DNA of 64,000 nt from a virus. The position numbers were made by a program, and so were the translations under genes. Where the stretch lies: IMG/VR virus record IMGVR_UViG_3300042324_002009, positions 17,709 through 81,708 of that record, one strand, 5' to 3'. Of this stretch, positions 34,807 through 51,986 are shown piece by piece (position 1 is the first letter of the stretch; each line of letters opens with the position of its first letter). The notes beneath the pieces are model-generated. The model was not told where the DNA came from, ran no database searches, and saw only the letters and a program-made list of their open reading frames with translations.

Positions 34807-36870
34807 ATGCAAGTAATCGCTTACAAGATCATTCCGGAGCCAGATAAGAACTCGGTCACCTACAGTAAAAATTATAGAATTTTTTCTGCAGCTGAACCTA
34901 TCCCTGGGGCTGTGAAAATTGTAGGTTTTAGTGAATCCGTTGACCTGGGTTCGGCTTTGCCCCAATATTTGATTCGTAAGTTTAGATATTCATTTGATAT
35001 GGGCAATTGGTCACTATGGTATGAACTAGATCCAGCTGATTTAACTAATATTGAAGACTTGTTATTTAATGAAGCTGATGTATTTTTTGAAGTCAAATAT
35101 GAATATGACGATACTACCTATAATTCATTAGCTACTGCATTAACTGTTAATTTTGTAAAATTTAATATTCAAAGTACCAGTGTCTCTGAATCTTTATATA
35201 CTCCAACTGTGTATTGCTCATCTGAACGTTGCCCAGCAATTGTTGCTGAGCGCGAAGCCTCATTTAAACCATATGAAGTTGGAACTGCAATTGGAATTGC
35301 CAAAGAATTAAGTTATCAAACTACTAAAATCTTTGGGCATGAAGTTGTCTATTTTAAAACTGAACCAGACCGTACTGGCGGAGATTTTATATTTAAGGAA
35401 TGGACACTATTTGAAACAGTTGACCGTAAATGCGTAAAAGTTGTTGTACCCAATAATACTTTTCCAGATAATAAGCCCCAATTTACTGAATTTGGAATTG
35501 ATTTTGAAGTTCCGTTTGAAATTCATATTGACCATGTATACTTTCAGTCAATATTTGGACCAGGTACCCAACCTCGTAAAAGAGACTATATGTACTTTCC
35601 ATTAACTAATCGAATGTATGAAATTCAAGGTTCATATCTGTATCGTGGATTTATGATGGAGCCATTATATTGGAAAATACAGTTAACTAAATTTCATCCA
35701 AACATTGATATGTTAATGAAAGCTGGTGATCGTGTATTCCTAGACAATATTATTATTTCTAGTGATCAGCTTTTTGGTAAACAGGCAGAGGTTCAGAAAA
35801 AAGATGCTCTTGATAAACAGCAATATAAAACAATTTCCAATAGGTTTGATGAAACACGTAGATCGTTACATCCTGACTTAACTAACCGAATATTAGATCA
35901 CACATTTAATTATTCTCCATTAATTGAGTATTACTATGATATGAGCGGCGTAAAACAGGTGATTGCAAATTATACAATTGCATCAAACGGAAATTCGGAA
36001 GATCAATACTTAACCCCTGATGCTCCATATTCAGTTTATGCATATGAAGGTAGTAATATATTTAGTGCATGGCAACGTCGCCAGCTAAATACTGGAGATA
36101 CTAATATTGGGACGTCAAGCCAAGCTACTGTTAAAATGGACGGGCCTAAGGATTCATACACTGCTCTTGGTAAATATGTAGTAGTTGAAGGTTATAAAAA
36201 TTTGGCACTAAACCCAACCAAGCGCCAATCAATTACAGTTAATGCAGGTGGAGCTCTTCAATTTAAACAGTCAGAGCATGCGGTTGTATATAAAGCAGTT
36301 GCCTCAACTGATAATACTCCAAATATGACATTTAGTGCCTTAATTAAATTTAATAGGGGCACCCAGGATATCCGAATATTGGATGGATATGATAACTTAT
36401 TAAGTAAAGGATTAAGAGTAACCTGTTCACTCGTAGATAATAGTGGAATACCATATTCAACCTTCTACGTACAAATTAATGGTAGCTCTTATACTTTTAT
36501 TGTTGGTGATTTAGCCTATGATAAATGGTATTCATTAATTGTGCCAGTATCATCGCAATATGGACAATTACAACTTAACCTATATTCGTTTGGTCAAGAT
36601 CCAGCAAATATCAAGAATTTTAATAGTTTAGTTAGTGTATATACAGGATCAGCTAATCCTGGAAACTTTACATTTGTGACTGACCAAAATTGGGCACTAC
36701 CATCCGCAAATTATTCAATTGCAAATATCCGATTGTTTAATACAATGGTTCAGCCAGAAGATCATGAATTTATAGTAAGTCAATTATTCATACGAGACGA
36801 GTCTCTACTTGAACTAATTGATAATGCTCGACCTAGATTAAATGTACCATTTATTGCAATAAACAGTTAA
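34807..36870 (+). CDS. Neck/head-completion protein (T4 gp14-like core) with C-terminal LamG-like domain
   Basis: FGHEVVYF...FTEFGIDFE...PRKRDYMYFPLTNRMYEI resembles gp14 motifs. C-terminal MTFSALIKF...DKWYSL...IANIRLFN is concanavalin/LamG-like. Confidence 0.6.
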   Translation: MQVIAYKIIPEPDKNSVTYSKNYRIFSAAEPIPGAVKIVGFSESVDLGSALPQYLIRKFRYSFDMGNWSLWYELDPADLTNIEDLLFNEADVFFEVKYEYDDTTYNSLATALTVNFVKFNIQSTSVSESLYTPTVYCSSERCPAIVAEREASFKPYEVGTAIGIAKELSYQTTKIFGHEVVYFKTEPDRTGGDFIFKEWTLFETVDRKCVKVVVPNNTFPDNKPQFTEFGIDFEVPFEIHIDHVYFQSIFGPGTQPRKRDYMYFPLTNRMYEIQGSYLYRGFMMEPLYWKIQLTKFHPNIDMLMKAGDRVFLDNIIISSDQLFGKQAEVQKKDALDKQQYKTISNRFDETRRSLHPDLTNRILDHTFNYSPLIEYYYDMSGVKQVIANYTIASNGNSEDQYLTPDAPYSVYAYEGSNIFSAWQRRQLNTGDTNIGTSSQATVKMDGPKDSYTALGKYVVVEGYKNLALNPTKRQSITVNAGGALQFKQSEHAVVYKAVASTDNTPNMTFSALIKFNRGTQDIRILDGYDNLLSKGLRVTCSLVDNSGIPYSTFYVQINGSSYTFIVGDLAYDKWYSLIVPVSSQYGQLQLNLYSFGQDPANIKNFNSLVSVYTGSANPGNFTFVTDQNWALPSANYSIANIRLFNTMVQPEDHEFIVSQLFIRDESLLELIDNARPRLNVPFIAINS

Positions 36871-36878
36871 CAACACAT

Positions 36879-38231
36879 ATGTATAAAGATTTAACAAAAA
36901 GCCAGCTATTCGATAATGTAAAATTAGGATTTGAATTTGAATTCTTTTCTCCAATTTTACGTGCGGAATTAGCTGAGAAATTAACAACCATTTTAGGTAA
37001 AAAGGTAATTAGCACCAATGAGTATGGTTCAGATATTCCAGTAAGCTATGATACTTTTAAAATTGAACCTGATTTTTCAGGTGGATTTAAAATGAATGAG
37101 CTAATTACTGGCGTAATGCCGTATAATGAAGCAATTCACGTATTATATAAAGTCTTAAATTTCATTGATGAAAACGGCTTTACTACTGAAAGAACTGGAT
37201 TACACATAAACCTGTCATTAAATGAATTTGATCTTGGGCTAAATGAGCGTCTGCAAAATCTAAATGTATTTAAGTATATTCTAGGTCTTAACGAAGAGAA
37301 AATATTTGAATTATGGCCATCTGCTAAATCAAGAATTCAAAAAATTTATAAAAATTCAGTTAGCAATATTTACCCTAAAACTAAATTCTTGGCTGAGACC
37401 TCAATCGATTATGCCCGACCAAACAGTCCACTTGATTTTTTATATCCTCAATCAAAGTATTTTGGTTTAAATTTTGAAAAGTTAAATGAAGGCTATTTAG
37501 AAATTAGATATGCTGGTGGAATTGACTATCAATTAAAAAGAGCAAGCGCAACTGAATTAATTAATTATATTGCTGAATCTCTGTACAATACGCTTCAAGT
37601 AAATCACTCATATTCAATTGATGAACAAAAGAAAGTTTACGAAGTGATGAAAAAGCAGAGAGAAAATACTTTAGCTATTAAAACTTATGAAAATTTCAAA
37701 AAGAATTTTCCAGAAATAGAATTATTCATTGACTTAAGAGATGATCCGCGAATTATTGAATCTAATTATCTAAATCTTCGTGAAAAGCTATTTGACTTAA
37801 TCACTTTTGGCAAAATCAAAAAGGGCCAAGTAAATTATGATACTCAAAATAAAAGGGTTCAATTAAAAGAGTCTAAATTAGAAGAAGGCTTTGGAATTCA
37901 TGACATTGATATTATAAATTGCAAAATTGAAGCCGAAATTTCTAACTGTACTCTATATGGGTGCAAAGTTAGATCATCACATATCACTGAATGTAGAATC
38001 TTAACCAGCAATGATATTAGATATTGTCATTTAGATGATTGTTTATTTGAGAGAGGGTGTCATAACCGAATTGACTTAAGCTATATTAAGAGTTCGCCTG
38101 AAGCAATTATATATGCAGACTTAAATGAGTGTATTGTTAGATCAGGAATTATTGCACTTGATTCAAAAGTTGATAATAAAACCGAAATTCTGTCCGGTAG
38201 TGCAAAAGGCAGTAAAAATCAAATAAAATAA
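36879..38231 (+). CDS. Putative amidoligase (COOH-NH2 ligase, Amidoligase_2-like) with C-terminal Cys-rich beta-helix-like repeats
   Basis: LGFEFEF, IEPDFSGG, ELITG, TGLHINLS, KYFGLNF, YLEIRYAGG. C-terminus has INCKI/SNCTL/YGCKV/TECRI short repeats. Confidence 0.8.
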   Translation: MYKDLTKSQLFDNVKLGFEFEFFSPILRAELAEKLTTILGKKVISTNEYGSDIPVSYDTFKIEPDFSGGFKMNELITGVMPYNEAIHVLYKVLNFIDENGFTTERTGLHINLSLNEFDLGLNERLQNLNVFKYILGLNEEKIFELWPSAKSRIQKIYKNSVSNIYPKTKFLAETSIDYARPNSPLDFLYPQSKYFGLNFEKLNEGYLEIRYAGGIDYQLKRASATELINYIAESLYNTLQVNHSYSIDEQKKVYEVMKKQRENTLAIKTYENFKKNFPEIELFIDLRDDPRIIESNYLNLREKLFDLITFGKIKKGQVNYDTQNKRVQLKESKLEEGFGIHDIDIINCKIEAEISNCTLYGCKVRSSHITECRILTSNDIRYCHLDDCLFERGCHNRIDLSYIKSSPEAIIYADLNECIVRSGIIALDSKVDNKTEILSGSAKGSKNQIK

Positions 38232-38278: not shown

Positions 38279-41200
38279 ATGGCAGTACAACTAAAAATCT
38301 CAAGTATTAAATCAATCAATGGTTCAAGTTTAAATACCATCATTGATTTGTCTAATTTCAACTTTAGCACAATTAAATCAGCAATTGATGAATTCTTAAC
38401 CTCAATTAATTATTCTCAAGTAGATGGTGAGATTGCAGTTGATATTCAAGGAATCTCAACCAATTCAATTATTATCAGAAATGGTTTAACTGTATATGGT
38501 ACTCAACAACAAAATGGCAGCTATCCTGAAGTAATTAAAATGTATCCAACTGGTGCAATCACTGCAAAGAACGTTGTAGTTGAAGATGTACTTGAAGGAA
38601 AACGTCTTAGACTTAAGGTGTATGGAGTACTTCCACCAACTGCTGTTCCTGGTGAAATTGTTTATATTACTGCGCAGAATGGAAGAGTTGAAGGTTTTTA
38701 TGGATATTTACAGTCGACTGGTTGGTGTTTACTTAGCTGCGGCGGAACTGGCGAAGGTATTTGTACAGCATCGGTTACTAGGTCAGTTACTCCAAATGTA
38801 ATATCTGGAGATGGAGAATTATTATCACCTGGTCTATTACCAATACCTGCACCAATTGCAACAACCATGTACTTATTATTTGTTAATGGTCATCAAATAA
38901 CTATTGGAGATGGAGATATTAGCGCCAGTGCCTATTTTAGTAAAGATGGTGGAGTTACTGCAACTATATACGCTCAAGTCGATGTGACTGACGAACTTTA
39001 TTGGAACACAACCTCTGCTGGTTATGGATTAGATAGCGGAGACTTTGTTACCTTAATGTATTCAACAGTTGATGCAAATTGTGCTGGAGCAAATGGTACT
39101 ATTTGTATAACTAATATTTTAACTGCAGGTAATACTGAGTCAGTATTTGCTCAAGTTGGAGTTGATGTTATTATGGAGGATCCAGCTTCAGCTAATTGCC
39201 CAATTACTGTGTGCACTTTACCAATTCCAACAATTGAGCCAGAGGGAATTGATTTACCATATGGATATTTTTTAACTAATTCAGTTTTGGCTTTTGATAT
39301 TTCTACTAGCTGCGCAGGTTGTGCACTTATTGGATTTGGATTACCTCAAACAATGACTGAAACTGAATTTGATTCAGTTAGAATTTTTGAAGAAATTAGC
39401 GGAGTTTATACAGACGTTACTATTTTAACTGGACCGTATGCTCCAAATTATTCTACTCGTACAATTTATGCAGAGATTTGCGATTTTGGAGCATTTTATT
39501 TGATACCAGTAGACTCAGCGATACCAACTACAACTACGACAACTGCTGCGCCTACTACCACTACTACTGCTGCTCCAACTACCACTACTACAACTGCGGC
39601 GGCAACCACTACTACAACGGCTGCACCTACTACTAGTACAACAACCGCTGCACCTACTACTAGTACAACAACCGCTGCTCCGACTACTAGTACAACAACG
39701 GTTGAGCCTACGACTACAACAACGGTTGAGCCTACGACTACAACAACTATTGAGCCTACGACTACAACTACCACAACTAGAGTTGACCCTACTACTACAA
39801 CAACTGAGGCTCCGACTACTAGTACAACAACTGTTGCTGAAACTACTAGTACAACAACAGTAGGTGAAAGAACTACCACTACTACAACTAGGTCAGGCGA
39901 AATAACTACAACTACCACAATTAGTTGTGATGGATTTATTGCAACTATTAATGGACCTGGTCCATTTGATATAATACTAGATGGCTTTGATGGAATTGGA
40001 TATACAATTACACAAGATGGCTCAGATATTACATCCGGTACTCTACCGGATTCTTTACCTGGAATCGGATTAGCAATTGAAAAGCTTTTAACAATTACGT
40101 TAGCGAATGGATGCGTATTTACCTATGCATTTGACGAAGGTTTAGGGACTTGGGAGTTATTTACTGGATCAACTACTACAACGACAACTGAGGCTGCAAC
40201 TACTAGTACCACAACTGCCGCTCCTGAGCCAGCTACAACCACAACAACGGTAGCTCCTACTACAACAACAACAACTGAGGCTTCAACTACGAGTACCACA
40301 ACTAAGGCTGAACCTACTACAACTACAACAACACTGACGGAAATATTTAGAAGTATAAATTGCGAAACTTCAACTGTTATAAATATTGACTTTACTACAA
40401 TATTAGCAATAACTCCAGAAATTGGACAAGTTTATTACTTAACATTTGACGACAGTAGCGAGGGTTGTTATACAATATTGTCAAGTGCTACTGGAACTGC
40501 TAATCGTATTGCAAATACAGCAAGCGATCCTATTGCTGACTGTATGAGCTGTCTACCAACTACAACTACAACAACAATAGCCCCTACTACAACTACCACA
40601 ACTGAACCAATATCCGAACCTACGACTACTACAACACTAGAGCCTGGGCTTACCACTACTACAACCGCTGAACCTAGGCCTACAACTAGTACAACAACGG
40701 TTGAACCTACAACTAGTACAACAACGGTTGAACCTACAACTAGTACAACAACGGTTGAACCTACAACTAGTACAACAACGGTTGAGCCTACTACAACTAC
40801 CACAACAACGGTTGAGCCTACTACAACTACCACAACTGAACCAATATCCGAACCTACGACTACTACAACAACGGTTGAACCTACAACTACTACAACAACT
40901 AGAGTTGACCCTACTACAACTACCACAACTGAACCAATATCCGAACCTACGACTACTACAACAACGGTTGAGCCTACTACAACTACCACAACTGAACCAA
41001 TATCCGAACCTACGACTACTACAACAACGGTTGAGCCTACAACTAGTACAACAACTAGAGTTGACCCTACTACAACTACAACAACGGTTGAGCCTACAAC
41101 TAGTACAACAACGGTTGAGCCTACAACTAGTACAACAACAATAGCCCCTACTACAACTAGTACAACAACGGTTGAACCTACAACTAGTACAACAACAATA

Positions 41201-41572
41201 GCCCCTACTACAACTAGTACAACAACCGTTGAGCCTGAATTTGAAACTACTACAACCACAACAGCTGAGCCTACAACTACCACTACAACGGTATTTGATG
41301 GAGAAGTTACAACTACGACTACCGCAAATCCTTGCAACTGTGTATCCGTTGAAAATACAATGGATGGACCAAACGACTTTGACTATACAGACTGTGACGG
41401 TAATTTACAAATGACTCAAATTGCAGCATTTACTACAGTTAGTTTATGTGTACTTAGCTATCCGGATAATGCAATATTTAATGTTACCCCAAGCGGAAGT
41501 TGTGCATTTAATGGAGAAATTTGGAGTTGCGTAATTGGTGAAACTACTACAACTACAACAAGGCGACCATAA
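38279..41572 (+). CDS. Mucin-like Thr-tract protein with Cys-rich modules (putative virion surface protein)
   Basis: N-terminal SNFNF helix, globular domains, and three poly-Thr/PTTSTTTVE tracts separated by small Cys-containing domains. Has a late promoter. Confidence 0.8.
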   Translation: MAVQLKISSIKSINGSSLNTIIDLSNFNFSTIKSAIDEFLTSINYSQVDGEIAVDIQGISTNSIIIRNGLTVYGTQQQNGSYPEVIKMYPTGAITAKNVVVEDVLEGKRLRLKVYGVLPPTAVPGEIVYITAQNGRVEGFYGYLQSTGWCLLSCGGTGEGICTASVTRSVTPNVISGDGELLSPGLLPIPAPIATTMYLLFVNGHQITIGDGDISASAYFSKDGGVTATIYAQVDVTDELYWNTTSAGYGLDSGDFVTLMYSTVDANCAGANGTICITNILTAGNTESVFAQVGVDVIMEDPASANCPITVCTLPIPTIEPEGIDLPYGYFLTNSVLAFDISTSCAGCALIGFGLPQTMTETEFDSVRIFEEISGVYTDVTILTGPYAPNYSTRTIYAEICDFGAFYLIPVDSAIPTTTTTTAAPTTTTTAAPTTTTTTAAATTTTTAAPTTSTTTAAPTTSTTTAAPTTSTTTVEPTTTTTVEPTTTTTIEPTTTTTTTRVDPTTTTTEAPTTSTTTVAETTSTTTVGERTTTTTTRSGEITTTTTISCDGFIATINGPGPFDIILDGFDGIGYTITQDGSDITSGTLPDSLPGIGLAIEKLLTITLANGCVFTYAFDEGLGTWELFTGSTTTTTTEAATTSTTTAAPEPATTTTTVAPTTTTTTEASTTSTTTKAEPTTTTTTLTEIFRSINCETSTVINIDFTTILAITPEIGQVYYLTFDDSSEGCYTILSSATGTANRIANTASDPIADCMSCLPTTTTTTIAPTTTTTTEPISEPTTTTTLEPGLTTTTTAEPRPTTSTTTVEPTTSTTTVEPTTSTTTVEPTTSTTTVEPTTTTTTTVEPTTTTTTEPISEPTTTTTTVEPTTTTTTRVDPTTTTTTEPISEPTTTTTTVEPTTTTTTEPISEPTTTTTTVEPTTSTTTRVDPTTTTTTVEPTTSTTTVEPTTSTTTIAPTTTSTTTVEPTTSTTTIAPTTTSTTTVEPEFETTTTTTAEPTTTTTTVFDGEVTTTTTANPCNCVSVENTMDGPNDFDYTDCDGNLQMTQIAAFTTVSLCVLSYPDNAIFNVTPSGSCAFNGEIWSCVIGETTTTTTRRP
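39520..41325 (+). repeat. Thr-tract coding repeats (ACW/ACT codon runs; 27-nt VEPTTSTTT units)
   Basis: Tandem CCTACAACTAGTACAACAACGGTTGAA units from 40679, and repeated ACTGAACCAATATCCGAACCTACGACTACTACAACA cassettes. Confidence 0.9.
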
Positions 41573-41611: not shown

Positions 41612-42565
41612 ATGTTAACAAAGAAGACTATTTTTATATCAGCACAGCCTGACCATCAATACTTCCATTGGCAAGTTGAGGTGGTAATCCACAATTTTAT
41701 GAAAAATGGAATTAATCCAAATTGGATAGAAATTCTATTTGCCTATAATGACGAGCCTAGCCAAGAAGGTCTTGCCCTAGCTAGAAAATATCCAATGGTT
41801 AGATTCTTTTTCTATAAAAAAAGAATAACTCAAAACTTTGGATACATTCCAATTCTTAGGCCTGATATTCTTGAACAGCATTGGATAAAATATCCAGAAT
41901 TACGTGGTGAAACCGTTTTTTATCATGATTCAGATATTATCTTTAGAGAACTTCCAGATTTCGACTCAATGCATGACAATTTATATTGGTATGTAAGTGA
42001 TACCGTTTCTTATATTGGCGCAAATTATATTAAAAGTAAATCAGAAGACCTATTCATTGACCTTTGTAGTTTAACAAAAATTTCTCCTGAAATAGTAGAA
42101 AAAAATCAAGAAGGGTCAGGCGGTGCTCAATATTTAATGAAAGGCGTTACTTCTGACTTTTGGAAAGAGGTAATTTCAGATTCATTAACTATGTATAAGT
42201 ATATGGCAGATAGAGAAAGTCAAGAACGCAATACATTAACACCAGAAGAGTTAAAAATCTATAATCCTGTACAAAAATGGTGTGCGGATATGTGGGCAGT
42301 TCTTTGGGGTGGCTGGAAAATTGGTGCACAAACAATAATTACACCTGACTTAAATTTTAGTTGGGGAACTTCCTCAATTGAGGATTATGACCGTTGTACA
42401 ATTATGCATAACGCTGGAGTAACAGATGATAGAAAACCTGATCTTTTTTATAAAGCAGATTATCGAGAATCAAGCCCGTTTAATGCGGATCTTTCAAATA
42501 TTAAACCTAATACAGCTTCTGCTAAGTACGTAGATGCAATAATTTACGCAAAAGAAAATAGATAA
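41612..42565 (+). CDS. GT-A fold glycosyltransferase resembling peptidyl-Ser/Hyp O-glycosyltransferases (HPAT/SERGT1, GT95/96-like)
   Basis: YFHWQ, YIPILRPDILEQHW, DxD motif FYHDSDIIF, GGAQYL, KWCADMWAVLWGGWKIG, IMHNAG. The order and spacing parallel the plant YxxWQ / NRP / DxD / WxxEMY motifs. Confidence 0.75.
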   Translation: MLTKKTIFISAQPDHQYFHWQVEVVIHNFMKNGINPNWIEILFAYNDEPSQEGLALARKYPMVRFFFYKKRITQNFGYIPILRPDILEQHWIKYPELRGETVFYHDSDIIFRELPDFDSMHDNLYWYVSDTVSYIGANYIKSKSEDLFIDLCSLTKISPEIVEKNQEGSGGAQYLMKGVTSDFWKEVISDSLTMYKYMADRESQERNTLTPEELKIYNPVQKWCADMWAVLWGGWKIGAQTIITPDLNFSWGTSSIEDYDRCTIMHNAGVTDDRKPDLFYKADYRESSPFNADLSNIKPNTASAKYVDAIIYAKENR

Positions 42566-42635: not shown

Positions 42636-44633
42636 ATGTCTAATAAACTCAAAATAAAACAGGTTGATCTTAGCAACCTAAGTCAAGATAATTCATTAAA
42701 TAAGTTTTTGGTAGTTGATGCTGCTGGTAACGCTTATTATAGTGATTCTCCTGGTGCCGGTTCTGGTGGTTCTGGCTCAAATGGTACGTCGGGTACTTCA
42801 GGTACAAGTGGCCAAGACGGTTCAACTGGTACATCAGGCTCAGATGGAACTTCTGGTACTTCAGGTACAAGTGGCCAAGATGGTTCAACTGGTACTTCTG
42901 GTTCAGATGGAACTTCTGGTACTTCAGGTACAAGCGGTCAAGATGGTTCAACTGGTACTTCTGGTTCAGATGGAACTTCTGGTACTTCAGGTACAAGCGG
43001 TCAAGATGGTTCAACTGGTACTTCTGGTTCAGACGGTACGTCAGGTACTTCAGGTACAAGCGGTCAAGATGGTTCAACTGGTACTTCTGGTTCAGACGGT
43101 ACGTCAGGTACGTCCGGTTCTTCTGGAACAAGTCCATTAGGTTTTTCTTCTGGTACTTCTGGTTCAGATGGAACATCTGGTTCAGACGGTACTTCAGGTA
43201 CAAGCGGAGAAGCAGGTTCTTCAGGTTCAGATGGAACTTCAGGTACAAGTGGCCAAGACGGTTCAACTGGTACTTCCGGCTCAGACGGAACAAGCGGTAC
43301 TTCAGGTATAGATGGAACTAATGGTTCAGACGGAACTTCAGGTACTTCTGGAATTGATGGAACTAATGGTTCAGATGGAACTTCAGGTACTTCTGGAATT
43401 GATGGAACTACTGGTTCAGACGGAACTTCAGGTACAAGCGGACAAGACGGTTCAACTGGTACTTCTGGTTCAGACGGAACTTCTGGAACAAGTGGTGATA
43501 CTTTTACTTATCCAACTGATTTAATTGTTTCATTAACTGGAGGTAGAACTTTTGGACGTTATGTAAGCGGTAGTACTATTCCAGCAACTGGAAAAACTGC
43601 AGCTGAGGTAATTAGTTTAGCAATTGCTGAGCCAATTACTCCAACTGTTGCTCTAACTTCTAGCACATCAATTGCGTTTAATCAAACAGCAATTAGTAAT
43701 GTTCTAAATTTTAGTCATACTATAAATAGTTTAGGAGCAACAATTAGTAGTGTTTCTCTTGAATGGCGAAGAGGCGGTGCAGGTTCATGGGTAGTTTTAT
43801 CAACCTCAACTACTACGCCAAGTACATTTACACATTCACTCACCGATACTAATTATAATACCTCTGCTTTTAATTACAGATATATTGTAACTGATTCAAT
43901 TGGTGCAACTGCGACTGCTACTTTAAATATTACGCCAATCGCATATTCAGCACCATCAATTTCCTTAACAGTTGCTGCAGTTTCAAGTACTTCACCTGAA
44001 ACAAATACAAAAAGAGAAAAAGGAAATATTAATACTAATTTAAGCGGAACTATTACCAGAAATAGTGTAAACAGTGCCTTATCTAGTTATACTTTACAAT
44101 ACTCATTAAATAATAGTTTATGGGTAGATATTGGATCAGAGGTATCAATTGGTCCAGGTACTTCAAGCATTACATTAACTAATCATAATGATATTACGTT
44201 ATTTGCGTCAACTACCATCTATTATAGAGTAAAAGTAATTGATGCATATCAAACATCCTTATCAAGTTTTGCAACTGGTGGAAATACCACAGTTAGTTTT
44301 TTAAATCTAATATTTTACGGACCATCATCCGCAGTTCCAACAACTTCAAGTGATATTAGAGCACTAGGATCCCGAATATTTACGGATGGAAGTAATCCAT
44401 TTAATTTATTAACGGGTACTACTCAAATCAATTTTACAGCAGCAATGCCAGCTACACTAAGTTTAAGCAGTGTAGTTGACTTAGATGCATTAAACGCAGA
44501 TATTACTGGAAATTATGTTTTATCAACATTTAATGTAGTTGACTCCTACGGTACTAACGTATCGTATCGTAACTATACCATGACAAATGCGACTCCTTAT
44601 GGAACATCGCATCGACACCAAATAACTAGATAA
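42636..44633 (+). CDS. Gly-X-Y (Ser/Thr-rich, collagen-like) fibre protein 1 with C-terminal Ig/FN3-like domains
   Basis: 40 + 39 Gly-X-Y triplets (42774-43133, 43152-43502), then beta-sandwich-like domains ([18 protein letters not shown]). Confidence 0.85.
42783..43097 (+). repeat. 5 x 63-nt tandem repeat ([21 protein letters not shown])
   Basis: Five near-identical 21-codon units differing at synonymous sites. Confidence 0.9.
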
Positions 44634-44639
44634 TAGAAT

Positions 44640-47600
44640 ATGTCATTAACTCCAGGATTACAATTACCGTATGGTATACAGCCGGTTAACCCAGTACCAG
44701 TAGATGCTTGGTCCGGACCTTATACCGGGGCAAACGAAACTGCTGCGATTGCTGCAGCAAATACAGCGATCCTTTCAGCCATCCGTTTTCAATCAATGGA
44801 AGTCCGCCTTATCTTCGGCGGCAGCTCTCATAAATATTGGTACCGTGATGGAGTATTAGATACAGATTTAGTAGAATTTGCATCAGGTAGTGGAACTGCT
44901 GGCACAGCCGGTAGTGCAGGAACAAGCGGAACCTCTGGAGCCTCAGGCTCAGATGGAACTTCAGGTACTTCAGGTATAGATGGAACTAATGGTTCAGACG
45001 GAACTTCAGGTACTTCTGGAATTGATGGAACTAATGGTTCAGATGGAACTTCAGGTACTTCAGGTATAGATGGAACTAATGGTTCAGACGGAACTTCAGG
45101 TACTTCTGGAATTGATGGAACTACTGGTTCAGACGGAACTTCAGGTACTTCTGGAATTGATGGAACTAATGGTTCAGATGGAACTTCTGGAACATCAGGA
45201 TCAGATGGAACAAGTGGTACTTCAGGTATTGACGGAGTCTCTGGAACAGATGGTAGCTCAGGTACTTCAGGAGAATCCGGCTCAAATGGAACAAGTGGTA
45301 CTTCAGGAGAATCCGGCTCAAATGGAACAAGTGGTACTTCAGGTTCAAATGGAACAAGCGGTACGTCAGGTATAGATGGAACAAATGGTTCAAATGGAAC
45401 TTCCGGTACAAGCGGTATTGATGGAGTCTCTGGAACAGACGGTAGCTCAGGAACTTCTGGCGAATCAGGTTCAAACGGGTCAGATGGTACGTCCGGTACG
45501 TCAGGCTCAAATGGAACTAGTGGTACTTCAGGTTCAAACGGTACTTCTGGAACTTCTGGTTCCAATGGCTCAAACGGGTCAGACGGAACTTCGGGTACGT
45601 CAGGCATTGACGGAGTCTCTGGAACAGATGGTTCTAGTGGAACTTCAGGAGAATCAGGCTCAAATGGAACTTCTGGAACTTCCGGTTCAGATGGTACAAG
45701 CGGAACTTCAGGTTCAAATGGAACTTCTGGTACGTCTGGAATAGACGGAACAAATGGTTCAGACGGAACTTCCGGTACTTCAGGTATCGATGGAGTCTCT
45801 GGAACTGACGGTAGCTCAGGTACTTCAGGAGAATCAGGTTCAAATGGTTCAGATGGAACAAGCGGAACTTCAGGATCAGATGGAACTTCAGGATCAGATG
45901 GAACATCTGGTACGTCCGGTATAGATGGTACAAATGGAGAAGATGGTTCTTCTGGAACAAGTGGTAGTTCAGGCCTAAGCGGCGTAGACGGTTCAAGCGG
46001 AACTTCAGGCTCAACTGGTTCAGATGGTACTTCAGGTTCAAATGGAACAAGTGGAACTTCAGGATCAAATGGAACAAGTGGAACTTCCGGTACTGCTGGA
46101 ACTTCTGGAACAAGCGGAATAGACGGAACAAACGGTTCAGACGGTACTTCAGGAACAAGTGGAATAGACGGAGTCTCTGGAACAGATGGTAGCTCTGGAA
46201 CTTCTGGCGAATCAGGTTCAAATGGAACAAGTGGAACTTCAGGTATAGATGGAACTAATGGGTCAGATGGAACAAGTGGAACTTCAGGTATAGATGGAAC
46301 TAATGGGTCAGATGGAACAAGCGGTACCTCAGGTACTTCAGGAATAGACGGAGTCTCTGGAACAGACGGTAGCTCAGGTACTTCTGGAGAATCAGGTTCA
46401 AATGGGTCAGACGGTACCTCAGGTACTTCAGGTTCAGATGGAACAAGCGGTACTTCAGGCTCAGACGGAACAAGTGGAACTTCGGGTATAGACGGAACTA
46501 ATGGTTCAGATGGTACTTCTGGTACTTCTGGTATCGATGGAGTCTCTGGGACAGATGGTAGCTCAGGTACTTCAGGAGAATCAGGTTCAAATGGTTCAGA
46601 CGGTACATCAGGTACTTCAGGTATAGATGGAACTAATGGGTCAGACGGTACTTCAGGTACTTCAGGCATAGATGGAACTAATGGTTCAGATGGAACAAGT
46701 GGTACTAGTGGAACTTCAGGTATTGATGGAGTCTCAGGAACAGATGGTTCAAGCGGAACTTCTGGCGAATCAGGTTCAAATGGTTCAGATGGAACTTCTG
46801 GTACTTCAGGATCAGATGGTACATCAGGTTCAGATGGTACTTCAGGTACTTCAGGAATAGATGGAACTAATGGTTCAGATGGTACTTCGGGTACTTCTGG
46901 TATCGATGGAGTCTCTGGGACAGATGGTAGCTCAGGTACTTCTGGAGAATCAGGTTCAAATGGTTCAGATGGAACTTCTGGTACAAGTGGAATAGACGGA
47001 ACAAACGGTTCAGATGGTACAAGTGGAACTTCAGGTTCAGATGGAACAAGCGGTACATCTGGCTCAAACGGATCAGACGGTACTTCTGGAACTAGCGGTA
47101 TTGATGGAGTCTCTGGAACAGATGGTTCTAGTGGAACTTCCGGTTCAGAAGGCACAAGCGGAACTTCCGGTTCAGATGGTACTTCTGGAACTAGTGGTAT
47201 AGATGGAACAAATGGATCAGATGGTACAAGCGGTACTTCAGGCTCAGATGGAACTAGTGGTTCAGATGGAACTTCTGGTACATCAGGAATAGATGGTACT
47301 TCAGGCTCAGATGGTTCTTCTGGAACAAGTGGTAGCTCTGGTTTAAGTGGCGTAGATGGTTCTTCTGGAACATCCGGTTCTATTGGAACTTCTGGAACAA
47401 GCGGTACATCAGGTACATCAGGGTCAGATGGTACTTCTGGTTCAAATGGTACTTCTGGAACAAGCGGGTCAGACGGTACTTCTGGAACAAGCGGGTCAGA
47501 TGGTACTTCAGGAACAAGCGGGTCAGATGGTACTTCCGGTACTTCTGGATTAGACGGAACAAATGGTTCAGACGGTACTTCCGGTACAAGCGGAACTTCA

Positions 47601-50600
47601 GGTATAGACGGAGTCTCAGGAACAGATGGTAGCTCAGGAACTTCTGGCGAATCAGGTTCAAATGGAACAAGTGGAACTTCAGGTTCAAACGGATCAGATG
47701 GAACAAGCGGTACCTCAGGCTCAGATGGAACTTCAGGTACTTCAGGTATAGATGGAACTAATGGTTCAGATGGTACTTCAGGTACAAGCGGTATTGATGG
47801 AGTCTCTGGAACAGATGGTTCTAGTGGAACTTCTGGCGAATCAGGTTCTAATGGAACAAGCGGTACGTCAGGTTCAAACGGGTCAGATGGAACTTCAGGA
47901 ACTTCCGGTTCAGACGGTACTTCTGGTACATCAGGTTCAGATGGTACAAGTGGTACATCAGGTTCAGATGGTACTTCAGGAACTTCAGGTTCAGATGGTA
48001 CGTCAGGAACAAGTGGAACTTCTGGTTCAGATGGTACTTCTGGTACTTCAGGATCAGACGGTACAAGTGGAACTTCTGGAATTGATGGAACAAATGGTTC
48101 AGACGGTACTTCAGGTACAAGCGGAACTTCAGGTATCGATGGAGTCTCTGGAACTGACGGTAGCTCAGGAACTTCTGGAGAATCAGGTTCAAATGGAACC
48201 TCTGGTACTTCAGGCATAGATGGAACTAATGGTTCAGATGGTACAAGTGGAACTTCAGGTTCAGATGGAACAAGCGGTACTTCAGGTTCAAACGGATCAG
48301 ATGGAACTTCTGGAACTTCTGGTATTGATGGAGTCTCTGGAACAGATGGTTCTAGTGGAACTTCTGGTTCAGAAGGTACAAGCGGTACTTCTGGTATTGA
48401 TGGAACAAACGGATCAGATGGAACAAGCGGCACGTCAGGAATAGATGGAACAAATGGTTCAGATGGTACGTCAGGTACTTCAGGCTCAGATGGTACTTCT
48501 GGAACAGATGGTATAAATGGAACAGATGGTTCTAGTGGAACCTCTGGTAGTTCAGGTCTAAGCGGAGTAGACGGTACTTCTGGTACTTCAGGTTCAGACG
48601 GTACTTCTGGTACTTCAGGTTCAACTGGTACTTCTGGTACTTCAGGTTCAGACGGTACTTCTGGTACTTCAGGTTCAGACGGTACTTCTGGTACTTCAGG
48701 TTCAGACGGTACTTCCGGTACTTCAGGTTCAGACGGAACTTCAGGAACTTCGGGAATAGACGGAACAAGCGGTTCAGATGGAACAAGCGGTACCTCAGGT
48801 ACTTCAGGAATAGACGGAGTCTCTGGAACAGATGGTAGCTCAGGAACTTCAGGAGAATCAGGTTCAAATGGTACTTCAGGTACAAGTGGAACCTCTGGTA
48901 CTTCAGGTTCAGATGGAACAAGCGGTACTTCAGGCACAAGCGGTTCAGACGGTACTTCTGGAACAAGCGGCACCTCTGGTTCAGACGGAACCTCTGGTAC
49001 TTCTGGTTCAGACGGAACCTCTGGTACTTCTGGTTCAACTGGTACTTCAGGTACTTCAGGCTCAACTGGTTCAGATGGAACTTCAGGCACAAGCGGAACT
49101 TCAGGGTCAGACGGAACCTCTGGTACTTCCGGTACTTCCGGTATTGATGGAGTCTCTGGAACAGATGGTAGCTCTGGAACTTCTGGCGAATCAGGTTCAA
49201 ATGGTACTTCTGGAACAAGTGGAACTTCAGGTTCAAACGGTTCAGACGGAACCTCAGGTACTTCAGGTATTGATGGAACAAATGGATCCGATGGAACTTC
49301 CGGTTCAGATGGAACCTCTGGTACTTCCGGTGCAAATGGTATTTCAACTAGTGTATTCTATTATGAAGCTAAAGATAATGCACAATCAGGTAATCCTGGA
49401 GATGGTCATATTCTTTGGAATAATGCAACACAAATTAGTGCAACCCAAATAAACATAAATCATTTAACGGATGCTCCAATAACTGATATTGATATATTTT
49501 TAGCTCTATTACAAGTAGGTCAACAATTAACAATTCAAGATCGAAACAATAGTGCAAATTATCAAGTATGGGTTATTAATGGAGCAACTACCTTAATTAC
49601 TGGAGCCTCCAATTACTGGACTGTTCCAGTTGCACTAGTTAGTTCTGGTGGTACTCCACAGTTTGCAAATAATCATGAAATTTTCTTAGCCATAATTGCT
49701 GCAACTGGTTCTAGTGGCACAAGCGGTACTTCAGGCTCAACTGGTACTTCAGGAACTTCAGGTTCAACTGGTACTTCCGGTACTTCAGGCTCAACTGGGT
49801 CAAATGGAACTAGCGGAACATCAGGTACTTCAGGCTCAGACGGAACAAGCGGTACTTCAGGTACTTCCGGTATTGATGGAGTCTCAGGAACAGATGGTTC
49901 TTCAGGTACAAGCGGAACAACTGGTACTTCCGGTACTTCAGGTTCAGACGGAACCTCTGGTACTTCAGGTTCAAATGGTTCAGTTGGAACTTCCGGTACA
50001 AGCGGAACAACTGGTACTTCCGGTACTTCAGGTTCAGACGGAACAAGCGGTACTTCTGGTTCAACCGGCACAAGCGGAACCTCTGGTACTTCTGGAACAA
50101 GCGGAACTTCTGGTTCAACTGGGTCAGATGGAACATCAGGCACAAGCGGAACTTCTGGAATAGACGGCGTCTCTGGAACAGACGGTAGCTCTGGTACATC
50201 AGGCGAATCTGGCTCAAATGGAACTTCTGGAACAAGCGGTACTTCAGGTTCAACTGGAACAAGCGGAACTTCTGGTACTTCTGGTACATCCGGTTCAACT
50301 GGTACTTCGGGTACAAGCGGAACTTCCGGTTCAACTGGTACTTCGGGTACAAGCGGAACTTCCGGTTCAACTGGAACTTCAGGCACAAGCGGAACAAGTG
50401 GAACTTCAGGCACAAGCGGTACTTCAGGTTCTGATGGTACATCAGGAACAAGCGGAACTTCTGGTATTGATGGAGTCTCTGGAACAAACGGTAGCTCAGG
50501 AACTTCGGGAGAATCAGGCTCAAACGGTACTTCTGGAACATCCGGTTCAACTGGAACTTCGGGAACTTCTGGTTCAACTGGAAGTTCAGGAACATCAGGC

Positions 50601-51986
50601 TCAACTGGTACATCTGGTACTTCCGGTTCAACTGGTACATCTGGAACTTCTGGCTCAACTGGTACATCTGGAACTTCTGGCTCAACTGGTACATCTGGTA
50701 CTAGCGGTACTTCCGGTTCAAGCGGTACTTCTGGAACTTCAGGTTCAACTGGAACTTCGGGAACATCAGGTTCAACTGGAACAAGCGGAACTTCTGGTAG
50801 TTCTGGTACATCGGGTTCAACTGGTACTTCAGGTTCAACTGGAACATCAGGAACTTCTGGTTCAAGTGGATCAGACGGTACTTCTGGTACTAGCGGTACG
50901 TCCGGTATTGATGGAGTCTCAGGAACAAATGGTAGCTCAGGTACATCAGGTTCAGCTGGAACAAGCGGAACATCTGGTACTTCTGGTACCTCTGGTTCTT
51001 CAGGAACTTCTGGTTCAAACGGCTCAAGCGGAACTTCTGGTTCAAATGGCTCAAACGGTTCTTCAGGAACTTCAGGTTCTAATGGATCAAGCGGAACTTC
51101 AGGTTCTAATGGATCAAGCGGAACTTCAGGCTCAAATGGTTCTTCTGGAACTTCAGGTTCTAATGGATCAAGCGGAACTTCTGGTACTTCAGGTTCAACT
51201 GGAACAAGCGGAACTTCTGGTTCAGATGGTTCATCTGGAACATCAGGTATTGATGGAGTCTCTGGAACAAACGGCTCAAGCGGAACGTCGGGTTTAACTG
51301 GTACTTCGGGCTCAGACGGTTCAAGCGGTACTTCTGGTGGAACTGGTACTTCAGGCTCAAACGGTTCAAGTGGTACTTCCGGTACATCTGGTTCAAGCGG
51401 AACTTCGGTTTCAGTATCCGGTACTCAATCTCAATATACGGTATTTGGTGCAGGTGGAACCACTGTAGTTGATTCAACCTTTGGTATATTTGAAGATACT
51501 ACACTAGATGCCCTATTAATTGGAACCCAGGCTGTTGCTGAAATGCCAAATGAAGTAGTATACAGCCGCCATCAAAATATAACGACTGGAGTAAAACAGG
51601 CTCATTCAAATATTTTATACTCTGATCCAATTTCAGCCTTTGGCTCTGCTGGCTTAAAAATTGATATTGTAAATAATAAATCATTTGAGTTTAATACAGT
51701 GGATAGAATATATGGTATTCAAATTTATATGATAGGTAGTGCGGGAGGCTCTAATGAGGTTGATTATCGAATGTATAGCGGAGCTGTTAAAAATATTGCT
51801 GGAACTGTTTCAATTGTTGGAAATGGATTTACTGAAATTACGCTTGCTCAAGATTCAGTACTTTGGGTATCTATCCCAACTTTTACAATAAGTGGAGCAA
51901 TTTTACTTATTAATATTGCAAATAATACATCTGACCAAATCGCAATTGCTGCACGAGTTGAAATAATTAGTGATGGATTGATATAA
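44640..51986 (+). CDS. Gly-X-Y fibre protein 2 (2448 aa)
   Basis: N-terminal domain, 495 triplets (44892-49346), ~120-aa globular insert, 189 triplets (49707-51407), C-terminal domain of about 190 aa. Confidence 0.9.
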   Translation: MSLTPGLQLPYGIQPVNPVPVDAWSGPYTGANETAAIAAANTAILSAIRFQSMEVRLIFGGSSHKYWYRDGVLDTDLVEFASGSGTAGTAGSAGTSGTSGASGSDGTSGTSGIDGTNGSDGTSGTSGIDGTNGSDGTSGTSGIDGTNGSDGTSGTSGIDGTTGSDGTSGTSGIDGTNGSDGTSGTSGSDGTSGTSGIDGVSGTDGSSGTSGESGSNGTSGTSGESGSNGTSGTSGSNGTSGTSGIDGTNGSNGTSGTSGIDGVSGTDGSSGTSGESGSNGSDGTSGTSGSNGTSGTSGSNGTSGTSGSNGSNGSDGTSGTSGIDGVSGTDGSSGTSGESGSNGTSGTSGSDGTSGTSGSNGTSGTSGIDGTNGSDGTSGTSGIDGVSGTDGSSGTSGESGSNGSDGTSGTSGSDGTSGSDGTSGTSGIDGTNGEDGSSGTSGSSGLSGVDGSSGTSGSTGSDGTSGSNGTSGTSGSNGTSGTSGTAGTSGTSGIDGTNGSDGTSGTSGIDGVSGTDGSSGTSGESGSNGTSGTSGIDGTNGSDGTSGTSGIDGTNGSDGTSGTSGTSGIDGVSGTDGSSGTSGESGSNGSDGTSGTSGSDGTSGTSGSDGTSGTSGIDGTNGSDGTSGTSGIDGVSGTDGSSGTSGESGSNGSDGTSGTSGIDGTNGSDGTSGTSGIDGTNGSDGTSGTSGTSGIDGVSGTDGSSGTSGESGSNGSDGTSGTSGSDGTSGSDGTSGTSGIDGTNGSDGTSGTSGIDGVSGTDGSSGTSGESGSNGSDGTSGTSGIDGTNGSDGTSGTSGSDGTSGTSGSNGSDGTSGTSGIDGVSGTDGSSGTSGSEGTSGTSGSDGTSGTSGIDGTNGSDGTSGTSGSDGTSGSDGTSGTSGIDGTSGSDGSSGTSGSSGLSGVDGSSGTSGSIGTSGTSGTSGTSGSDGTSGSNGTSGTSGSDGTSGTSGSDGTSGTSGSDGTSGTSGLDGTNGSDGTSGTSGTSGIDGVSGTDGSSGTSGESGSNGTSGTSGSNGSDGTSGTSGSDGTSGTSGIDGTNGSDGTSGTSGIDGVSGTDGSSGTSGESGSNGTSGTSGSNGSDGTSGTSGSDGTSGTSGSDGTSGTSGSDGTSGTSGSDGTSGTSGTSGSDGTSGTSGSDGTSGTSGIDGTNGSDGTSGTSGTSGIDGVSGTDGSSGTSGESGSNGTSGTSGIDGTNGSDGTSGTSGSDGTSGTSGSNGSDGTSGTSGIDGVSGTDGSSGTSGSEGTSGTSGIDGTNGSDGTSGTSGIDGTNGSDGTSGTSGSDGTSGTDGINGTDGSSGTSGSSGLSGVDGTSGTSGSDGTSGTSGSTGTSGTSGSDGTSGTSGSDGTSGTSGSDGTSGTSGSDGTSGTSGIDGTSGSDGTSGTSGTSGIDGVSGTDGSSGTSGESGSNGTSGTSGTSGTSGSDGTSGTSGTSGSDGTSGTSGTSGSDGTSGTSGSDGTSGTSGSTGTSGTSGSTGSDGTSGTSGTSGSDGTSGTSGTSGIDGVSGTDGSSGTSGESGSNGTSGTSGTSGSNGSDGTSGTSGIDGTNGSDGTSGSDGTSGTSGANGISTSVFYYEAKDNAQSGNPGDGHILWNNATQISATQININHLTDAPITDIDIFLALLQVGQQLTIQDRNNSANYQVWVINGATTLITGASNYWTVPVALVSSGGTPQFANNHEIFLAIIAATGSSGTSGTSGSTGTSGTSGSTGTSGTSGSTGSNGTSGTSGTSGSDGTSGTSGTSGIDGVSGTDGSSGTSGTTGTSGTSGSDGTSGTSGSNGSVGTSGTSGTTGTSGTSGSDGTSGTSGSTGTSGTSGTSGTSGTSGSTGSDGTSGTSGTSGIDGVSGTDGSSGTSGESGSNGTSGTSGTSGSTGTSGTSGTSGTSGSTGTSGTSGTSGSTGTSGTSGTSGSTGTSGTSGTSGTSGTSGTSGSDGTSGTSGTSGIDGVSGTNGSSGTSGESGSNGTSGTSGSTGTSGTSGSTGSSGTSGSTGTSGTSGSTGTSGTSGSTGTSGTSGSTGTSGTSGTSGSSGTSGTSGSTGTSGTSGSTGTSGTSGSSGTSGSTGTSGSTGTSGTSGSSGSDGTSGTSGTSGIDGVSGTNGSSGTSGSAGTSGTSGTSGTSGSSGTSGSNGSSGTSGSNGSNGSSGTSGSNGSSGTSGSNGSSGTSGSNGSSGTSGSNGSSGTSGTSGSTGTSGTSGSDGSSGTSGIDGVSGTNGSSGTSGLTGTSGSDGSSGTSGGTGTSGSNGSSGTSGTSGSSGTSVSVSGTQSQYTVFGAGGTTVVDSTFGIFEDTTLDALLIGTQAVAEMPNEVVYSRHQNITTGVKQAHSNILYSDPISAFGSAGLKIDIVNNKSFEFNTVDRIYGIQIYMIGSAGGSNEVDYRMYSGAVKNIAGTVSIVGNGFTEITLAQDSVLWVSIPTFTISGAILLINIANNTSDQIAIAARVEIISDGLI
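48573..48734 (+). repeat. 6 x 27-nt near-perfect tandem repeat GGTACTTCTGGTACTTCAGGTTCAGAC
   Basis: Directly visible. One unit ends in ACT instead of GAC and one has TCC. Confidence 0.9.

Follow-up and report, generated by a model that had tools for sequence, protein, structure and literature searches.

A putative peptidyl-threonine O-glycosyltransferase family of phages coupled to poly-threonine tracts in virion proteins

We report that a gene in a 64,000-nucleotide stretch of viral DNA (positions 17,709 to 81,708 of the IMG/VR virus record IMGVR_UViG_3300042324_002009; the whole stretch is referred to as the window) encodes a 317-amino-acid (aa) enzyme of PHROG 4417, and that the genes of this protein family are coupled in phage genomes to poly-threonine (poly-Thr) tracts in virion proteins. 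The gene, located at 41612..42565 on the plus strand, probably encodes a soluble metal-dependent glycosyltransferase that puts the first sugar on threonines of the phage's own poly-Thr particle proteins, i.e. a putative peptidyl-threonine O-glycosyltransferase. The original prediction, which was made from the letters of the window, had proposed a glycosyltransferase with the motifs of peptidyl O-glycosyltransferases that would act in the cytoplasm where virions assemble; comparative genomics favours the reading of a peptidyl O-glycosyltransferase working there on the phage's own proteins. The same prediction had also placed the protein close to plant enzymes of the HPAT/SERGT1 type, a claim that fared less well and that is treated separately below.

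Co-variation of the enzyme with poly-Thr tails in Enterococcus phages

The phiFL1A-type Enterococcus lineage was sampled as all 27 IMG/VR loci having a tail-tube protein 65-100% identical to the core of phiFL1A gp50; near-identical records were included, and 21 of the 27 tail-tube cores are distinct. The tail-tube protein carries a C-terminal poly-Thr tail in 12 of these records and has none in the other 15, and searching whole records with the family profile identified the enzyme in exactly the 12 tailed records and in none of the 15 others, six of which are at least 90% complete. With relatedness ignored, the exact probability of this 12/15 split is 1 in 17,383,860. On a tree of the tail-tube cores, from which the tails had been removed, four joint changes of enzyme and tail are needed and the well-supported branches force at least three, and the members of one sister pair (L176/L177) differ from each other in both the enzyme and the poly-Thr tail.

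A genome-wide search for (ACN)6, i.e. six consecutive threonine codons, gave four to six matches in each of the 12 enzyme-bearing records, and in the 11 records with six matches these fall at two sites approximately 2 kb apart. Among the enzyme-free records 14 of 15 have no match and the remaining one has a single match. The second site corresponds to the C-terminus of the major capsid protein, where a poly-Thr tail is present in all three enzyme-bearing phages checked and in none of seven enzyme-free phages. When virion glycosylation is taken to predict an enzyme that co-varies with both the capsid and the tail-tube tails, the lineage gives 12 of 12 records against 0 of 15, with at least three independent changes.

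We also noted that in three of the 12 enzyme-bearing records (G773, G774 and G776) the match to the enzyme spans one in-frame TAG, the open frame being 294 aa; this TAG may be the natural end of a shorter form.

Coupling to poly-Thr proteins across viral loci

The wider survey covered the best 80 of the 595 family loci in IMG/VR, a sample in which distant members are under-represented. The open reading frames (ORFs) of each locus were called mechanically, longest first and non-overlapping, and an ORF was scored as poly-Thr if at least 15 Thr were present within some 30-residue segment. Immediately before the enzyme gene (position -1), 54 of 79 loci have such an ORF; the corresponding figures are 13 of 73 for -2 and 5 of 65 for -3 and, on the downstream side, 0 of 80 for +1 and 1 of 72 for +2. 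Three or more genes away, the criterion applies to 7 of 486 ORFs. When the enzymes are grouped at 70% identity, 20 of the resulting 31 groups have a poly-Thr ORF at -1 and 24 have one at -1 or -2. Moreover, the 67 poly-Thr partners fall into 16 unrelated groups once their Thr/Ser-rich parts have been masked, and those of Firmicutes phages are major tail proteins or an Ig-domain protein.

A different account of these neighbourhoods is that the enzyme is a glycosyltransferase for a non-protein acceptor, either the bases of phage DNA, as in hypermodification, or lipids or cell-wall polymers of the host, as in receptor masking or lysogenic conversion, and that the poly-Thr neighbours are a by-product of its location in the structural module. 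Phage DNA glycosyltransferases exist, as stated in the accessible part of a preprint (bioRxiv 10.1101/2023.12.21.572611), and 14 of the 80 viral loci have no run of at least five Thr within 6 kb. We consider this account improbable. The same capsid and tail-tube genes go without the enzyme in 15 of 15 records when they have no poly-Thr tails and with it in 12 of 12 when they do, which argues that the coupling is to poly-Thr itself and not to the structural module, and the imbalance between -1 (54/79) and +1 (0/80) points the same way. In addition, the enzyme gene is found in virulent as well as in temperate phages, and its bacterial homologs reside in peptide-export clusters and not in clusters for cell-wall synthesis or DNA modification. 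Judged from these sequence comparisons, the poly-Thr tracts of virion proteins are the most likely acceptor.

Poly-Thr particle proteins in cultured phages and in the window

In all six cultured phages that we inspected, poly-Thr is present on particle proteins encoded beside or near the enzyme gene. The phiFL1A enzyme, gp51, follows the major tail protein gp50, which has a Thr-rich C-terminal tail, and the major head protein gp45 has a Thr-rich C-terminal tail as well. The tail-tube protein of VPE25 has eleven C-terminal threonines, the annotated major tail protein of Staphylococcus phage RQ1 has seven, and Thr runs form the C-termini of gp18 (tail tube) and of gp11 in the Clostridium phage phiCTP1. 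The enzyme gene of Lactobacillus phage 521B comes after a gene for an Ig-domain protein with C-terminal TTV(K/A)P repeats, while Chryseobacterium phage MA9V-3 has poly-Thr proteins at -1 and -3.

In RQ1 (L215:4223-4925) an overlapping ORF of approximately 100 aa (4614-4925) lies in another frame just before the enzyme gene and is nearly pure poly-Thr; from its sequence it looks like a frameshift-extended form of the tail-tube protein that carries the tract.

The presumed acceptor in the window is a 1097-aa mucin-like protein (38279..41572, plus strand) whose gene ends 39 nt before the enzyme gene. It contains 334 Thr, with 50 runs of at least three Thr (the longest being 7), and 22 Cys. Searches of PHROG and Pfam gave no match to this protein, and for its N-terminal 410 aa no annotated phage relative was found, the weak matches being to two unannotated uncultured phages.

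Sequence features of the 317-aa protein

The ORF listing of the window has a single ATG ORF of 317 aa at 41612-42565 on the plus strand, in agreement with the original prediction. All the motifs quoted there are present, and in the order claimed: YFHWQ (residues 17-21), GYIPILRPDILEQHW (beginning at residue 77), DSDIIF (beginning at residue 106), GG (residues 170-171), WCADMWA (residues 223-229; 42278..42298, plus strand) and WKIG (residues 235-238). Every one of the 58 and 94 aligned relatives has W20, Y78, D106, D108, Y134, G171, M227, F249, H266, G269, F279 and K281; Q21, W223, W228 and W232 reach a conservation of at least 90%. Because they include these invariant or near-invariant residues the quoted motifs exceed chance, and it is the core motifs that are conserved in relatives while WKIG is not. 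The WCADMWA block is the most conserved of the family, and the pattern QxW[CT][AS][DE]MW derived from it was used for locus searches.

Two elements are of particular relevance for a catalytic role. The first, Asp106-Ser-Asp108 (a DxD motif; 41927..41935, plus strand), follows the hydrophobic stretch ETVFYH and is the presumed metal and nucleotide-sugar site. The second, the invariant His266 in HNAGV (42407..42409, plus strand), is absent from the motifs listed in the original prediction and would be a third metal ligand or a catalytic residue.

No membrane segment was detected in the protein (the top 19-residue Kyte-Doolittle mean is 0.70), and its N-terminus, MLTKKTIFISAQPD, is not signal-like, as judged without a dedicated signal-peptide predictor. 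The proposed lack of a signal peptide and of a transmembrane anchor is in keeping with these values. A scan for promoters and terminators around the enzyme gene gave results at chance level.

Residues 139-169 (L..MC...GI....V......SGGAQ) have some likeness to the repeats of transcription activator-like effectors (TALEs), which we treated as chance. Specifically, the PDB-sequence matches of the family profiles are to Hax3 TALE repeats (whole-sequence E 6.5e-06 and 3.5e-04) and to geminin, and the TALE match is a repeat artefact since the score sums approximately eleven repeats while each single stretch has E ≥ 290.

Assignment as a glycosyltransferase

On the basis of sequence, the family is probably one of glycosyltransferases, and a soluble DxD-type transferase is likely. 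A DxD motif after a hydrophobic stretch, in combination with a downstream histidine, is the usual signature of metal-dependent GT-A enzymes. A pattern of this type is present here as ETVFYH-D106-S-D108-IIF plus H266, invariant in the 58 and 94 sequences; D106, D108 and H266 would then act as metal ligands in a fold of presumed GT-A type. In several relatives, moreover, the domain is fused to known glycosyltransferase domains, e.g. to GT2 (1.3e-16) and Gly_transf_sug (GT32-type, 1.9e-07) in P0139 and to GT6 (1.8e-13) in P0221. Among 92 long representatives, Glyco_transf_7C is present in 14, GT2-type models in 4, 3 and 1, GT6 in 2, GT29 in 1, GT25 in 1 and DUF6171 in 4; the GT29 sialyltransferase-like fusion, seen in one representative, has an E-value of 1.1e-20, and one of the 92 is fused to a radical-SAM/SPASM domain. 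The invariant DxD, the fusions to glycosyltransferase domains and the lack of a transmembrane segment together make the soluble transferase that had been predicted likely.

The extra regions of the fused forms are less diverse than these names suggest, in that 60 of 78 belong to one C-terminal domain family of approximately 230-260 aa, mostly without a Pfam name.

The DxD motif also serves other nucleotide-diphosphate-dependent transferases, and the enzyme might act on poly-Thr and yet transfer a sugar-1-phosphate (Stealth-like), a glycerol or ribitol phosphate, or a nucleotide. That no Pfam glycosyltransferase model matches the domain significantly would fit such an activity, as would the weak Stealth_CR2 matches in 2 of 58 members (best E 0.16). 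These Stealth matches are, however, far below significance, and the fusion partners are ordinary glycosyltransferase domains, which would extend a sugar primer; there is accordingly only a small chance that something other than a sugar is transferred. We give still less credence, and indeed very little, to the idea that the protein is no enzyme for the tracts at all, but a chaperone or assembly factor whose gene accompanies repeat-rich structural ones. It has no significant match to any enzyme family, which an assembly factor would explain, but the invariant residues D106, D108, H266, K281, Y78 and Y134 are polar or aromatic as is typical of an active site, fusions to glycosyltransferase domains recur and one is to a radical-SAM/SPASM maturase, and homologs are present in bacterial peptide-modification clusters where there is no virion to assemble.

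Several observations weigh against a glycosyltransferase acting on poly-Thr. In the phiFL1A-type records the tail-tube tail and the enzyme gene are adjacent and could move as one DNA cassette, and the capsid tail is the only tract that is physically separate from the enzyme gene; a single inserted cassette cannot, however, explain the three-way agreement, because five genes separate the capsid tail from the enzyme gene. In the survey a strong poly-Thr ORF is missing from both -1 and -2 in 20 of the 80 viral loci; 14 of these 20 are without any run of five Thr in the locus, six hold shorter Thr runs, and three of the 14 run-free loci are cut off just upstream. Searching four of the exception records in full located long in-frame poly-Thr ORFs away from the locus in the three with a completeness of at least 90%, and no poly-Thr ORF in the fourth, a 4%-complete fragment. 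In the window itself the pairing of enzyme and poly-Thr protein is one case, conserved within one clade. Most bacterial homologs have no poly-Thr neighbour, and the peptides of the bacterial clusters have only short Thr/Ser stretches. As to the enzyme class, no curated glycosyltransferase model matches the family significantly, no Pfam family matches the window protein at E ≤ 10, and the family profiles find no solved glycosyltransferase among PDB sequences at E ≤ 10. A weak GT-A hint comes from Glyco_tranf_2_4 in 4 of 77 members (best E 0.0065), Nucleotid_trans matches 1 of 58 members (E 0.38), and comparing the family with the fused C-terminal domain by hhalign gave a probability of 0.94%.

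Proposed mechanism and its implications

Taking the gene product as the enzyme that puts the first sugar on poly-Thr, it would be made late in infection together with the structural proteins, and its DxD/His metal site would bind a common host UDP-sugar as donor. In the host cytoplasm, before or during assembly, the first sugar would be transferred to threonine hydroxyls of unfolded poly-Thr tracts. For small siphophages these tracts would be the short C-terminal tails on capsid and tail-tube subunits; for the window phage the acceptor would above all be the 1097-aa mucin-like protein encoded 39 nt upstream. This protein, with its small Cys-containing modules, is probably a surface fibre or decoration, because its gene lies between neck-like and fibre-like genes. 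The outcome would be a virion with a glycan-coated, mucin-like surface, on which GT2-type enzymes, as fusions or from separate genes, would lengthen the glycan.

Two complete jumbo relatives, G002 (271 kb) and G004 (253 kb), have GT2 genes and genes for an NAD-dependent epimerase/dehydratase far from the enzyme locus (G002:C1, 188806-194201 and 249352-250032; G004:C1, 198103-198813 and 215245-215724). These genes could extend or diversify the glycan.

If the proposal is true, the occurrence of poly-Thr tails and mucin-like proteins in phage particles would have an explanation, and glycosylated virions would be predictable from sequence. The phages phiFL1A, VPE25, phiCTP1 and MA9V-3 would be cultured systems in which to study the function of the sugar coat, and natural sister phages without tail and enzyme exist for comparison. 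A small soluble enzyme together with a peptide tag would also be of use in glyco-engineering.

Size, annotation and hosts of the family

The window protein matches the PHROG 4417 profile (phrog_4417, function unknown) with an E-value of 2.7e-64 and 218 bits, and the match is full-length (residues 8-312 on profile positions 3-290 of 293); NCBIfam and the PDB sequences gave no match to it. A 90%-clustered protein collection contains 2054 homologs at E ≤ 0.001, and none of the 120 homologs listed, of these 2054, has a Pfam domain. At 50% identity the family has 837 representatives, and besides its IMG/VR loci it accounts for 132 loci in one-per-species prokaryote genomes. We identified 77 cultured phage records with a homolog, all less than 60% identical to the window protein, the best match being that of Chryseobacterium phage MA9V-3 (40% identity); the hosts of these phages include Lactobacillus (23), Enterococcus (21), Staphylococcus (11), Lactococcus (8) and Clostridium (3).

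"Hypothetical protein" is the sole name in the 10 family clusters checked, and two Firmicutes members are named 'Glycosyl transfera...' in UniRef. A literature search, outside of which most subscription journals and supplementary files fell, found nothing on the PHROG 4417 family, and likewise nothing on poly-Thr tails as phage glycosylation sites in texts other than supplementary files. Nor was any paper found that joins 'hydroxyproline O-arabinosyltransferase' and 'bacteriophage'.

Relationship to plant HPAT and SGT1

The motifs of the window protein had been described as being of the plant hydroxyproline O-arabinosyltransferase (HPAT)/SERGT1 type, and the protein as a viral member of a mainly eukaryotic enzyme clan. 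Neither description was borne out. The HPAT model PF23452 (model cut-off 23.9 bits) has no match to the window protein at E ≤ 10 and matches 1 of 227 relatives, at E 0.23 (the one match being in a set of 58, with none in a set of 92 at E ≤ 0.01 and none in a set of 77 at E ≤ 1), and every relative retrieved is from a phage or a bacterium. None of the family homologs in 49 viral records is matched by PF23452; one lone weak match in a viral record (E 0.0118, 11.8 bits, with an internal stop) lies far from the homolog and was put down to chance. The window's own record has no match to PF23452 or to PF23741 (the DUF7164 search). No PF23452 match was found in five homolog-bearing bacterial genomes or in 401 Bacteroidota genomes, and no PF23741 match in 301 Bacillota genomes; the control genomes were blank too, so that these negatives carry little weight.

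The link to HPAT comes from a protein language model. Of the 30 named clusters that lie closest in the ESM Atlas, 22 have HPAT (PF23452) in at least 10% of their members and six carry DUF7164; the HPAT row shown is a 50-member, mostly viral cluster with a score of 0.96. According to the Atlas calibration four of the ten best named hits share the family, which makes the family 'probably wrong', and the consistency is low. We regard this neighbour list as a lead, and as the sole pointer to HPAT.

For the plant enzymes it has been reported that HPAT1-3 (GT95) and SGT1 (GT96) are related type II membrane enzymes of the Golgi that start extensin O-glycosylation (PMC8012813, available part), and that predictions give GT95 a GT-A-like fold and GT96 one that is possibly novel (PMC8476585, available part). 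Like the plant enzymes as presented there, the phage family would initiate peptidyl O-glycosylation of repetitive hydroxy-amino-acid tracts in structural proteins. Unlike them, it would act on Thr, whereas the plant acceptors are hydroxyproline or Ser, and it has no significant sequence-profile match to them.

It is conceivable, but in our opinion rather doubtful, that the window family is a distant true member of the HPAT/SGT1 (GT95/GT96) lineage with a specific shared ancestor. This would be consistent with the 22 of 30 Atlas neighbour clusters, with the like sizes of the HPAT model and the window protein (307 positions and 317 aa), with the predicted GT-A-like fold of GT95 (PMC8476585, as above) and with the fact that both would be peptidyl O-glycosyltransferases. 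It is at odds with the PF23452 results, both for the window protein and the 227 relatives and for the homologs in the 49 viral records, and with the Atlas's own rating of the assignment. Furthermore, the type II membrane anchor of the plant enzymes (PMC8012813, as above) is lacking in the window protein, which with its top hydropathy mean of 0.70 appears soluble. Such a kinship concerns ancestry and is compatible with sugar transfer to poly-Thr.

A bolder version, which we find unlikely, is that the family is the founding phage/bacterial branch of HPAT/SGT1-type enzymes: soluble, self-sufficient, recognising bare poly-Thr tags, giving the virions of Bacteroidota and Firmicutes phages a mucin-like coat and glycosylating secreted Bacteroidota peptides. 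Were it true, plant extensin-type protein-repeat O-glycosylation would have a prokaryotic or viral origin, and a short (Thr)n tag with a small cytoplasmic enzyme would make a portable glyco-tagging system.

Comparison with known glycosylation systems

In mycobacteriophages (Che8, Corndog and Myrna) the capsid and tail-tube proteins are modified by a glycosyltransferase that the phage itself encodes, and this virion glycosylation shields the particles from antibody binding, as described in the accessible part of PMC12363180. Within the literature searched, part of which was available only as incomplete text, virion glycosylation by phage-encoded enzymes appears only for mycobacteriophages. The phiFL1A-type phages resemble that system, as far as it is described in the same partial source, in having capsid and tail-tube proteins as the two presumed targets, here with C-termini that vary together with the enzyme. 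They differ in the enzyme family: a 94-member profile of the present family has no match at E ≤ 10 in the whole Che8 genome, in a scan that left very weak similarity unscored, and none of the 77 homolog-bearing cultured phage records is from a phage infecting Mycobacterium. The acceptors differ as well, since neither of the two Che8 proteins has a poly-Thr tract (the capsid protein ends in ...NKTGS, the tail-tube protein in ...YSDGS), and in the window phage the acceptor can be a 1097-aa mucin-like protein. The annotation of PHROG 4417, for its part, gives neither a function nor a link to poly-Thr. If the proposed activity is true, a different and much larger enzyme family would perform a similar virion glycosylation with a simple poly-threonine acceptor.

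Mucin-type GalNAc-transferases (GT27) are DxD GT-A enzymes that start the dense O-glycosylation of Thr/Pro-rich tandem repeats. The similarity to these is a functional analogy only: a sequence relation was not detected, and the phage reaction would be cytoplasmic and carried out without a lectin domain.

Bacterial homologs

Homologs from Chitinophaga, Sphingobacterium, Pedobacter, Mucilaginibacter and Elizabethkingia mostly contain the domain as part of fused proteins of 480-590 aa. These Bacteroidota homologs are located in clusters for ribosomally synthesized and post-translationally modified peptides (RiPPs). In the cluster precursors a GG leader (TIGR04149, scoring 27.5 bits where the cut-off is 25) precedes a core that is first Thr/Ser-rich and then Cys-rich. 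Other genes of the clusters encode thioredoxin-like proteins, a C39-peptidase ABC exporter and HlyD; those of Chitinophaga additionally have radical-SAM and LanC-like proteins. Over 80 genome loci an exporter homolog is present in 34 and a GG-leader peptide in 15, one false match having been dropped. Peptide substrates in the cellular branch of the family fit a peptidyl transferase.

The sublancin SunS glycocin system comprises a GT2 S-/O-glycosyltransferase, thioredoxin-like proteins and a C39-ABC exporter. The Bacteroidota clusters have the same set of components as glycocin systems: a Cys-rich precursor with a leader, thiol-disulfide oxidoreductases, a transferase and an ABC exporter with a C39 peptidase. 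Unlike the glycocin GT2, their transferase is the PHROG 4417-family domain, as a rule in fusion with a second domain that in some members matches Glyco_transf_7C or GT2. The clusters have the appearance of an undescribed glycocin-like class, and they suggest an undescribed class of glycosylated secreted peptides.

RiPP-like clusters with a fused enzyme and a C39-ABC exporter can be seen at L136:2105-10603, at L095:2176-8934 and at other Bacteroidota loci. An unnamed cluster protein of approximately 290 aa has homologs in 28 of the 80 genome loci and adjoins the enzyme in L136.

Genomic context in the window

The source record is an 81.7-kb IMG/VR virus record with an estimated completeness of 30%, and the G+C content of the window is low. 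A replication block on the minus strand encodes a gp32-like single-stranded DNA-binding protein (SSB), a ribonucleotide reductase, GroEL and an exonuclease; the GroEL chaperonin gene (11548-13128, minus strand; phrog_5725, E 3.7e-157) lies beside those of the ribonucleotide reductase and the gp32-like SSB. From approximately 14 kb a late block on the plus strand encodes RuvC-like, late sigma factor, large structural, tail-fibre-like and neck-like proteins.

The enzyme gene sits in the late structural module, between neck-like and fibre-like genes. This module is marked by a 687-aa neck/head-closure-like protein (34807..36870, plus strand; phrog_679 head closure, 9.3e-07), whose match to Pfam T4_neck-protein (3.6e-04) is under the model cut-off. 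It is followed by a gene for a 450-aa Amidoligase_2 protein (36879..38231, plus strand; PF12224, 2.7e-07, 31.2 bits), at position -2 from the enzyme gene; the close relatives L003-L009 and L011-L014 likewise have an ORF of 449-459 aa there. The Amidoligase_2 gene may encode a second peptide-modifying enzyme of the same module.

Directly downstream of the enzyme gene is that of a 665-aa collagen-like fibre protein (42636..44633, plus strand; Gly-X-Y, Ser/Thr-rich), which matches Pfam Collagen (6.3e-33) and tail-fibre PHROGs (e.g. phrog_5073, 3.3e-34) and has a longest Thr run of 3. Two collagen-like giants come next: a protein of 2448 aa (44640..51986, plus strand) with Gly, Ser and Thr fractions of 0.29, 0.27 and 0.18 and a longest Thr run of 2, and an ORF of at least 3977 aa (52068..63998, plus strand) that runs past the end of the window. 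We considered these Gly-X-Ser/Thr giants as the conserved target of the enzyme and rejected them as such, since neighbours of this kind are confined to the close clade and none of the +1 neighbours in the 80 loci qualifies as poly-Thr; they may still be extra targets in the window phage. Both giant ORFs are built of triplets of the Gly-Thr/Ser-Ser-Gly-Ser/Ile-Asp/Asn type, the G+C content climbs from approximately 0.33 to approximately 0.45 across them, and the repeats also keep long ORFs open in the remaining frames and on the complementary strand.

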